From: Escherichia phage ECO111 5-P
DNA: 64,000 bases
Strand: one strand, 5' to 3'
Sequence record: OR844765
The notes beneath the pieces are model-generated. The model saw only the letters and a list, made by a program, of their open reading frames with translations. It was not told where the DNA came from and did no database searches. Shown in pieces: positions 41,228 to 41,950 of this stretch. The translations under genes were made by a program, and so were the position numbers. Within the stretch, counting starts at the first letter, position 1. Each line of letters begins with the position of its first letter.

Positions 41228-41950
41228 ATGCATACTGTATATAAAGTAACAAATTTGGTAAATGGAAAAATTTATATAGGTGTTCATAAAACCGAAAACC
41301 CGAATGATGCTTATAGAGGAAGCGGTAATGCCATAACTCGAGCTCACAAAAAGTACGGTATAGAAAATTTTTCAAAGGAAATTCTTTATACATATAATTC
41401 AGGTAATGAAAAACTTGATTCTGATAATGCGTATTTAATGGAAGAAAAATTAGTTACTGAAGATTTTATAAAATTGCCTAACAATTATAATTCAGTAGTT
41501 GGTGGTAGAGGATGCAGGTCTCATACAGATGAAATTAAATTAAAAATATCTAAAAACACATCAAAAGCTATGATGGGGCGTGAAGTTAAGCCAGAAACAA
41601 GAGATAAAATATCTAAGGCAAACAAAGGCAAAAAGCGTAGTGACGAAACTAAAGCTAAAATTTCTTCTTTGCAAATTGGTACTAAGAGAAAGCCTCATAA
41701 AAAGGAAACAAAGGATAAGATATCAAAAGCTAATACCGGAATGAAGATGACTGATTATCAAATACAAAAATTATCAAAATCTTTAACTGGTAGAAAGCTT
41801 AGTGATGAGCATAGATTAAATATATCTAAAGCTTCTAAAGGTCGAGTTTATCCAATGGGGCCACCCTGCGAATATTGTGGTAAAATAGTTAGAAAGGCGT
41901 GTTATAAGCGGTATCACGGTGATAATTGTAAAATGAGGAAAGTTGAATGA
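41228..41950 (+). mobile_element. Free-standing GIY-YIG homing endonuclease (Seg-like) with NUMOD3-type repeats
   Basis: VYKVTNLVNGKIYIGVHKT (GIY…YIG) and repeated E-T-K/R-x-K-I-S helices; wedged between gene 4 and gene 2 with overlapping start/stop; alternative upstream ATG at 41213. Confidence 0.8.

Follow-up and report, generated by a model that had tools for sequence, protein, structure and literature searches.

Introduction

Intronless homing by free-standing Seg enzymes has been established for SegE, SegF, SegG and SegB of phage T4 (review PMC2988022). In the T4 genome, segD is located between genes 23 and 24, segE between inh and uvsW and segC between 5.1 and 5.3, while genes 4 and 2 have nothing between them. 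RB69 has been described as free of homing endonuclease genes (HEGs), and the same 2010 review finds that convincing evidence for cross-genus homing is lacking (PMC2993671). A 2026 paper describes a Mosigvirus with ten putative HEGs, the sites of which are not detailed (PMC13600099). Seg-like genes at the 4–2 junction are already annotated in GenBank records, for example those of RB16 and Acj61.

Here, we analyse an open reading frame of 240 codons that lies between genes 4 and 2 in Escherichia phage ECO111 5-P (record OR844765; the whole stretch of 64,000 nucleotides is referred to as the window). From its sequence, domains and distribution we conclude, with a probability of roughly 80%, that it encodes a functional homing endonuclease of the Seg type, with a modular GIY-YIG architecture like that of I-TevI, and that this free-standing gene has invaded the 4–2 junction of a Mosigvirus. 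Its most likely mode of spread would be intronless homing.

Similar to the T4 Seg genes (SegA–G, of which SegE and SegD were aligned), the gene is free-standing between conserved genes, is polymorphic for presence and absence and would be expected to home without an intron. The protein shares the SegE-type GIY-YIG domain with the conserved elements xxYxxTN..NGKxYIGxH, DxYxGSG, KKYG, E and YN. In contrast, identity to the T4 proteins is only about 36–38%, the T4 genes occupy 23/24, inh/uvsW and other sites but never 4/2, the C-terminal Cys/His motif is missing from SegE and the C-terminus of SegD differs. For the T4 Seg enzymes there are experimental cleavage data, whereas cleavage by the window endonuclease is predicted. 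The T4 td intron endonuclease I-TevI (catalytic domain 1LN0/1MK0, DNA-binding domain 1I3J) is encoded within an intron, unlike the free-standing window gene; it is about 21–25% identical and differs in the number of repeats and in the position of the Cys/His motif.

Results and discussion

The window is an RB69-like Mosigvirus

The 6-kb neighbourhood of the insert is 96–98% identical in DNA sequence to RB69, FL31, SF and about 150 other Mosigvirus records, compared to only 60–80% identity to T4-like phages. A few indels aside, collinearity with RB69 extends over the whole window, at 91–98% identity. The window is RB69-like Mosigvirus and not T4-like. The proper baseline is therefore RB69, and the T4 frame of reference is misleading; for the 4–2 insert, other Mosigvirus genomes provide the informative comparison.

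This change of baseline affects the sites of the T4 genes segD and segE, which the initial annotation had described as differently occupied. The 89-aa ORF and the 50-bp gap that it had named at these sites are present (Table 1), but RB69 has the same 50-bp inh–uvsW gap and homologous DNA at 23–24. We also considered the 89-aa ORF as a remnant of SegD and rejected this, as it has no significant similarity to SegD and belongs to phrog_6003. Since RB69 shares both arrangements and the ORF is unlike SegD, the supposed slots represent the ordinary Mosigvirus arrangement, and their reading as replacements has to be given up in favour of a normal genus backbone. The claim that endonuclease content differs from T4 holds at the 4–2 junction, where the same HEG was looked for in T4 and is absent. 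The 89-aa ORF is intact in the window; in RB69, its counterpart (L011, 9292-9532) is annotated as two small ORFs of 41 and 29 aa, which suggests a frameshift or a sequencing difference in RB69.

Table 1. Positions of the features discussed in the text, counted from the first nucleotide of the window
Feature	Position	Strand	Description and basis
Endonuclease ORF	41228..41950	+	240 codons plus stop; predicted free-standing Seg-type homing endonuclease gene
GIY-YIG catalytic domain (aa 1-95)	41228..41512	+	Family-conserved Y5, Y16, G18, E72, N88
About six helix-containing NUMOD3-like repeats (aa 99-206)	41522..41845	+	Predicted DNA-binding linker/array; Pfam NUMOD3 and helices of the model
C-terminal C-x2-C...H-x3-C motif ("HGDNCK")	41867..41929	+	C214, C217, H230, C234; alignment
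3' end of endonuclease gene	41933..41950	+	Gives gene 2 its GAGGAAA ribosome-binding site and the ATGA overlap
719-bp segment absent from RB69, FL31 and SF	41231..41949	+	Local blastn against RB69; junction sequences
Gene 4 (head completion protein, 149 aa)	40776..41225	+	TnsA-like N domain; collinear with gene 4 of RB69 and T4
Diverged 33-nt tract at 3' end of gene 4	41193..41225	+	Includes GAGG ribosome-binding site 41216-41219
Gene 2 (DNA end protector, 273 aa)	41947..42768	+	Collinear with gene 2 of RB69 and T4
T4-type late-promoter-like TATAAATA	40742..40749	+	27 nt before the gene 4 ATG; pattern search
89-aa ORF between genes 24 and 23	11866..12135	+	phrog_6003, E 2e-45
inh–uvsW spacer, 50 bp	uvsW start 6933 (minus strand); inh start 6984		

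A precise insertion separates genes 4 and 2

In RB69, FL31 and SF, the empty junction reads ...GGGTAA-TT-ATG-AGCATATTCC, and the window carries ...GGATAA-TT-ATG-(716 nt)-ATG-AGCATATTCC instead; the gene 4–gene 2 region of RB69 and FL31 centres on TAATTATG. As the ATG is duplicated at both ends of the insert, its boundaries could equally be placed at 41228-41946. With a 120-nt probe across the empty junction, the uninterrupted arrangement (TAA-tt-ATG) was found in 145 of the 152 Mosigvirus records. A different endonuclease gene occupies the junction in six records representing four phages (HX01, p000v, GADS24 and ChristianSchoenbein). The window allele occurs in none of the 152; its megablast matches are confined to the last 49 nt, in the six HX01-type records. 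The sole near-identical protein (99%) in a collection of 5.8 billion proteins comes from two short ENA metagenome contigs, in which the allele is 98% identical at the nucleotide level; across gene 4, the HEG and gene 2, these contigs are 96.5–97.7% identical to the window in DNA sequence.

The 719-bp insert thus shows presence/absence polymorphism with precise boundaries and altered flanks, as do Seg-type genes, and the endonuclease gene stands free between the separate genes 4 and 2. Around the insert, neither a group I intron nor any other Rfam family was found at E values up to 1, and there are no transposon-like terminal repeats or target duplications at the insert beyond the ambiguous 3-nt ATG. 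Assignment to the group I intron-encoded class was rejected: the score for TIGR01453 (group I intron endonuclease) of 51.1 bits is under the cut-off of 56.05, no intron RNA was found and the flanks are two separate genes.

The initial annotation had reported a complete Seg-like endonuclease with GIY-YIG and NUMOD3 domains at this position, and this is borne out by the intact ORF, the Pfam domains and the collinearity of the flanking genes with RB69 and T4. It had also reported overlaps at both ends of the gene. The overlap with the start of gene 2 exists (ATGA, 41947-41950), but between the stop codon of gene 4 (TAA, 41223-41225) and the endonuclease ATG at 41228 there are two bases, tt, so that these two genes do not overlap. 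Only the in-frame ATG further upstream at 41213 would create an overlap with the gene 4 stop. We set the start at 41228 rather than 41213 because the homologues in the alignment begin at the MHTVYK/MYTVYK position.

The protein retains the residues and modules of a Seg-type endonuclease

In the Pfam analysis of the endonuclease, NUMOD3 is found in three stretches with E 1.2e-15 (57.5 bits, cut-off 20.4). SegE_GIY-YIG matches the whole protein weakly, below the Pfam cut-off, and a scan restricted to residues 1-98 brings it above the curated threshold (30.7 bits, cut-off 25). In PHROGs, the protein belongs to phrog_314, annotated as homing endonuclease, with E 2e-49. A search of the PDB with the single sequence gave no match; I-TevI is reached both by the family profile, which matches the DNA-binding domain 1I3J with E 0.016, and by the structure model. 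The AlphaFold model, built with 52 homologues, has a mean pLDDT of 89, with 94–97 in the N-terminal domain, and six helices at regular spacing in the repeat region. The internal direct repeats within the gene reflect the NUMOD3 repeats. The protein thus combines a SegE-type GIY-YIG domain, with the conserved tyrosines of the GIY and YIG elements, the glutamate and the asparagine, with a C-terminal DNA-binding region of NUMOD-type modules as in Seg-type enzymes.

Every invariant and near-invariant residue of the family is retained, including Y5, Y16, E72, N88, C214, C217 and C234. The segment containing the catalytic Arg27 of I-TevI is an insertion relative to the Seg-type profile in the profile-to-1MK0 alignment, and we assign no equivalent; the same holds for the row of T4 SegE, which is reported to be active. 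At the C-terminus, C214, C217, D232 and C234 are nearly invariant across the homologues. No Pfam model matches the C-terminal Cys/His motif, which is probably a zinc-binding target-recognition module.

The sub-threshold scores of the whole protein for Pfam GIY-YIG and TIGR01453, together with the rarity of the allele, could be taken as signs of a decaying pseudogene or a remnant without activity. Decay would be difficult to reconcile with a frame that has no frameshift or internal stop and is full length compared to homologues of 238–250 aa, with a confident structure model, with the domain-only Pfam score above its cut-off and with an excess of synonymous changes relative to independent copies of the gene. 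We consider this reading highly improbable. The excess is seen in the gene body, where the two metagenome copies differ from the window by nine synonymous and two non-synonymous codon changes (P 1e-4 against neutral expectation). The endonuclease gene is, as judged from these codon changes, under purifying selection.

Expression and proposed coupling to gene 2

The pattern TATAAATA has 18 matches in the window, with 9.3 expected, and none is found between the one upstream of gene 4 and position 43887. The endonuclease gene is therefore without a late promoter of its own. Based on the pattern search, the element at 40742 is the probable start of a late transcript covering gene 4, the HEG and gene 2. 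A promoter or terminator belonging to the endonuclease gene was rejected, as sigma-70-like and terminator-like matches are at chance level. The same applies to sequestering of the start codons: folds of 81 nt compared to shuffled sequences give z values of -1.05 for the endonuclease start and +0.65 for the gene 2 start. Nor do the statistics support a 4-bp CUCG/CGAG stem that would cover the ribosome-binding site.

In HEG-less phages, translation of gene 2 is initiated at the slot that the insert occupies here. We propose that the promoter in front of gene 4 would drive late transcription of the endonuclease gene along with its neighbours, genes 4 and 2, and that the endonuclease would be translated from the former initiation slot of gene 2. 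Gene 2 would in turn be coupled to the endonuclease stop codon through the ATGA overlap. At its 3' end the window allele (240 aa) reads ...AAAGTTGAATGA, exactly as the HX01-type allele does. The metagenome copies (L016 799, L017 875) end ...AAACAGTAATG and encode 239 aa, with a TAATG overlap with gene 2.

This arrangement would also be compatible with an endonuclease activity that has been lost or is irrelevant, the ORF being kept for gene 2 expression or because it was co-opted for another task, for example to exclude competitors or to regulate itself. The insert has taken over gene 2 initiation, its last 18 nt serve as ribosome-binding site and overlap, and this 3' end is the same in the HX01 allele, which is otherwise 41% identical. 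Purifying selection fits any function. A mere translational spacer would have no need for the conserved GIY-YIG residues and the whole DNA-binding array, both of which are kept, and the use of TAATG in the metagenome copies indicates that the exact stop/start coupling is not fixed. Overall, co-option in place of endonuclease activity appears quite improbable, and we retain a functional homing endonuclease as the preferred reading.

Diverged gene 4 tracts accompany both alleles

In the 33-nt tract at the end of gene 4, only 22–23 of the 33 nucleotides match HEG-less RB69 and FL31, while the preceding 48 nt match at 48 of 48 positions. Of the 20 differences from FL31 over 510 nt, 10 are concentrated in the final 31 nt (binomial P 7e-8). 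In the gene 4 end, the changes at -11 to -4 replace Y-K by W-R in gp4; they are common to both metagenome copies, and the tryptophan is the state found in STP4-a-like phages. The tract is a candidate for a donor-derived co-conversion tract, an altered target site, or both. No donor of the 33-nt flank was found among the sampled phages, in which the best match is 25 of 33 nt. On the other side of the insert, all five Mosigvirus comparators agree without a difference over the first 206 nt of gene 2.

The HX01-type allele (L002, 2419-2499; L014, ChristianSchoenbein) has a foreign tract of its own, about 80 nt long, at the end of gene 4. Here, 55 of 81 nt are identical to RB69, compared to 65 of 69 further upstream. 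From these tracts, each 4–2 allele seems to have brought its own flank. The last 32 nt of the window endonuclease gene are those of the HX01-type 3' end, which hints at recombination between window-type and HX01-type alleles at their 3' ends. Between the window and HX01, gp2 is 99.3%, gp4 94.6% and the endonuclease 40.8% identical; between the window and STP4-a, the endonuclease is 62.9% and gp2 73% identical. Given the low endonuclease identity to HX01 next to a nearly identical gp2, and the higher identity to STP4-a, two subtypes have entered one site of this backbone independently.

The diverged tract, the polymorphism and the signature of selection are, as far as the sequence comparisons reach, the marks expected of a selected, horizontally acquired homing endonuclease gene, and such marks include a short co-conversion tract or an altered target. 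A different history would make the gene an ancestral resident that was lost from most Mosigvirus, with the two alleles as an old maintained polymorphism. The presence of homologues at the 4–2 junction across at least seven genera is in line with such a history, as is the STP4-a endonuclease, whose identity is lower than that of gp2, so that no recent cross-genus donor is identified. However, repeated loss would need base-precise deletion or conversion by the empty allele to leave base-identical compact junctions in 145 of 152 records. The sharp foreign tracts of 33 nt and, for HX01, about 80 nt look like recombination imports into a uniform backbone, and alleles that are 41% identical are found in backbones that are 99% identical. 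We therefore regard ancestral residence as unlikely compared to invasion.

Relatives occupy the same junction in other genera

In a tblastn search, the Seg-like endonuclease of Salmonella phage STP4-a ranks first among the named proteins (63%), followed by those of Acinetobacter Lazarusvirus phages (51%) and of the HX01 group (41%). Homologues are located between genes 4 and 2 in STP4-a, in Octan, in RZH (Karamvirus), in RB16 (Pseudotevenvirus) and in Acj61 (Lasallevirus), and likewise in the metagenome contigs L018-L021, L102 and L105. Homologous endonuclease genes thus occupy the 4–2 junction in at least six genera other than Mosigvirus, which makes the insert less unusual than the initial annotation implied. 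The window gene is a new, rare allele of a known gene family at an already known site. In IMG/VR, the best 80 of 393 relatives are partial matches with at most 53% identity and include no closer relative; none of these 80 adjoins genes 4 or 2 or fits a regular expression for the C-terminal motif. Two homologues were found at other positions: in a distant T4-like contig (L103, 2501-3178), gene 4 is preceded by a divergent intergenic region that contains an HGDNCK homologue, and contig L104 has a homologue with a variant C-terminal motif that is sited elsewhere than 4–2.

The STP4-a protein, STP4a_135 (Gelderlandvirus, with near-identical metagenome relatives, P0003), has 239 aa, is 63% identical over its full length and is encoded at the same 4–2 position. 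It shares the domain order, the extra NUMOD3 repeat and the C-terminal HGDNCK motif with the window endonuclease. In contrast, it is found in the backbone of another genus (gp2 73%), has a different stop/start arrangement with gene 2 and has no DNA similarity detectable by megablast. To our knowledge, STP4a_135 is known from its annotation alone, and we know of no experiments on it. The HX01-type endonuclease (for example YP_010246876) is similar in its genus, its junction, the last 32 nt, the ATGA overlap and the GIY-YIG/NUMOD3/Cys-His architecture. It differs in having 40.8% amino acid identity, a length of 216 aa, fewer repeats and a foreign gene 4 flank of about 80 nt compared to 33. It represents a different subtype, closer to the alleles of Karamvirus RZH (59%) and Acj61 (52%).

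Taken together, the HGDNCK endonucleases may be one old lineage that is faithful to the 4–2 neighbourhood in at least seven genera, with hosts from Escherichia to Acinetobacter. This lineage may move between genera, its competing subtypes may displace each other in Mosigvirus and it may be wired into gp2 expression through the ribosome-binding site and the overlap. Supplying gene 2 with both elements would make precise loss costly. As a whole, we hold this joint reading to be tentative and rather doubtful. If it is true, the lineage would be a natural system in which homing endonuclease alleles compete for one target, and also a case of cross-genus homing.

Proposed homing at the 4–2 junction

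For the window gene itself, we propose the following course of homing. Upon co-infection with a relative that lacks the HEG, the NUMOD3 and Cys/His modules would bind the uninterrupted 4/2 junction region, and the endonuclease would make a double-strand break nearby. The recombination machinery of the phage would repair the break on the HEG-carrying template, and the gene would be copied into the recipient along with adjacent markers. The outcome of this repair would be intronless homing with marker exclusion. The phage's own genome would be protected because the insertion splits the site, because the gene 4 end is altered, or both. Very efficient homing is argued against by the rarity of the allele (none of 152 Mosigvirus records, two short metagenome contigs), a count that comes from limited sampling.

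Since the empty junction, the HX01-type gene and the window allele are three natural states in near-identical backbones, they form a ready-made set for crosses. Such crosses bear on homing, on marker exclusion around essential virion genes and on competition between endonuclease alleles. The gene is a routine mobile-element call in genome annotation and phage-therapy genomics, and it leaves the understanding of the family unchanged.

Further differences from RB69 in the window

Several other parts of the window depart from RB69. The hoc gene (7662-8792, + strand) encodes 376 aa, the length of T4 hoc, compared to 471 aa in RB69, and about 500 bp of it (8002-8517) do not align with RB69. At 48580-48655, in a region of small hypothetical genes, about 1.2 kb of RB69 (L012, 16882-18079) are missing from the window. 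The segments 45412-45655 and 62437-63025 are likewise unaligned with RB69.

A second free-standing endonuclease gene is located at 53339-53995 (+ strand). It has a TTG start and encodes 218 aa, with a match to the HNH family phrog_374 (E 1.9e-59) and no Pfam match. RB69 lacks the segment 53335-53998, and the alignments in all 147 matching phage records are confined to its flanks, so that the DNA of the HNH gene is absent from the phage collection as well. With this gene and the 4–2 insert, the RB69-like window carries at least two homing endonuclease genes, which points to a genus that is being colonised. An ORF at 47260-47886 (+ strand, GTG start, 208 aa) has Pfam matches to MUG113 and T5orf172 (E 1.6e-8 and 7e-7), which we take to indicate a GIY-YIG-related domain. 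Its segment 47323-47883 does not align with RB69, and by its domain matches the ORF may be a third mobile nuclease-like gene.
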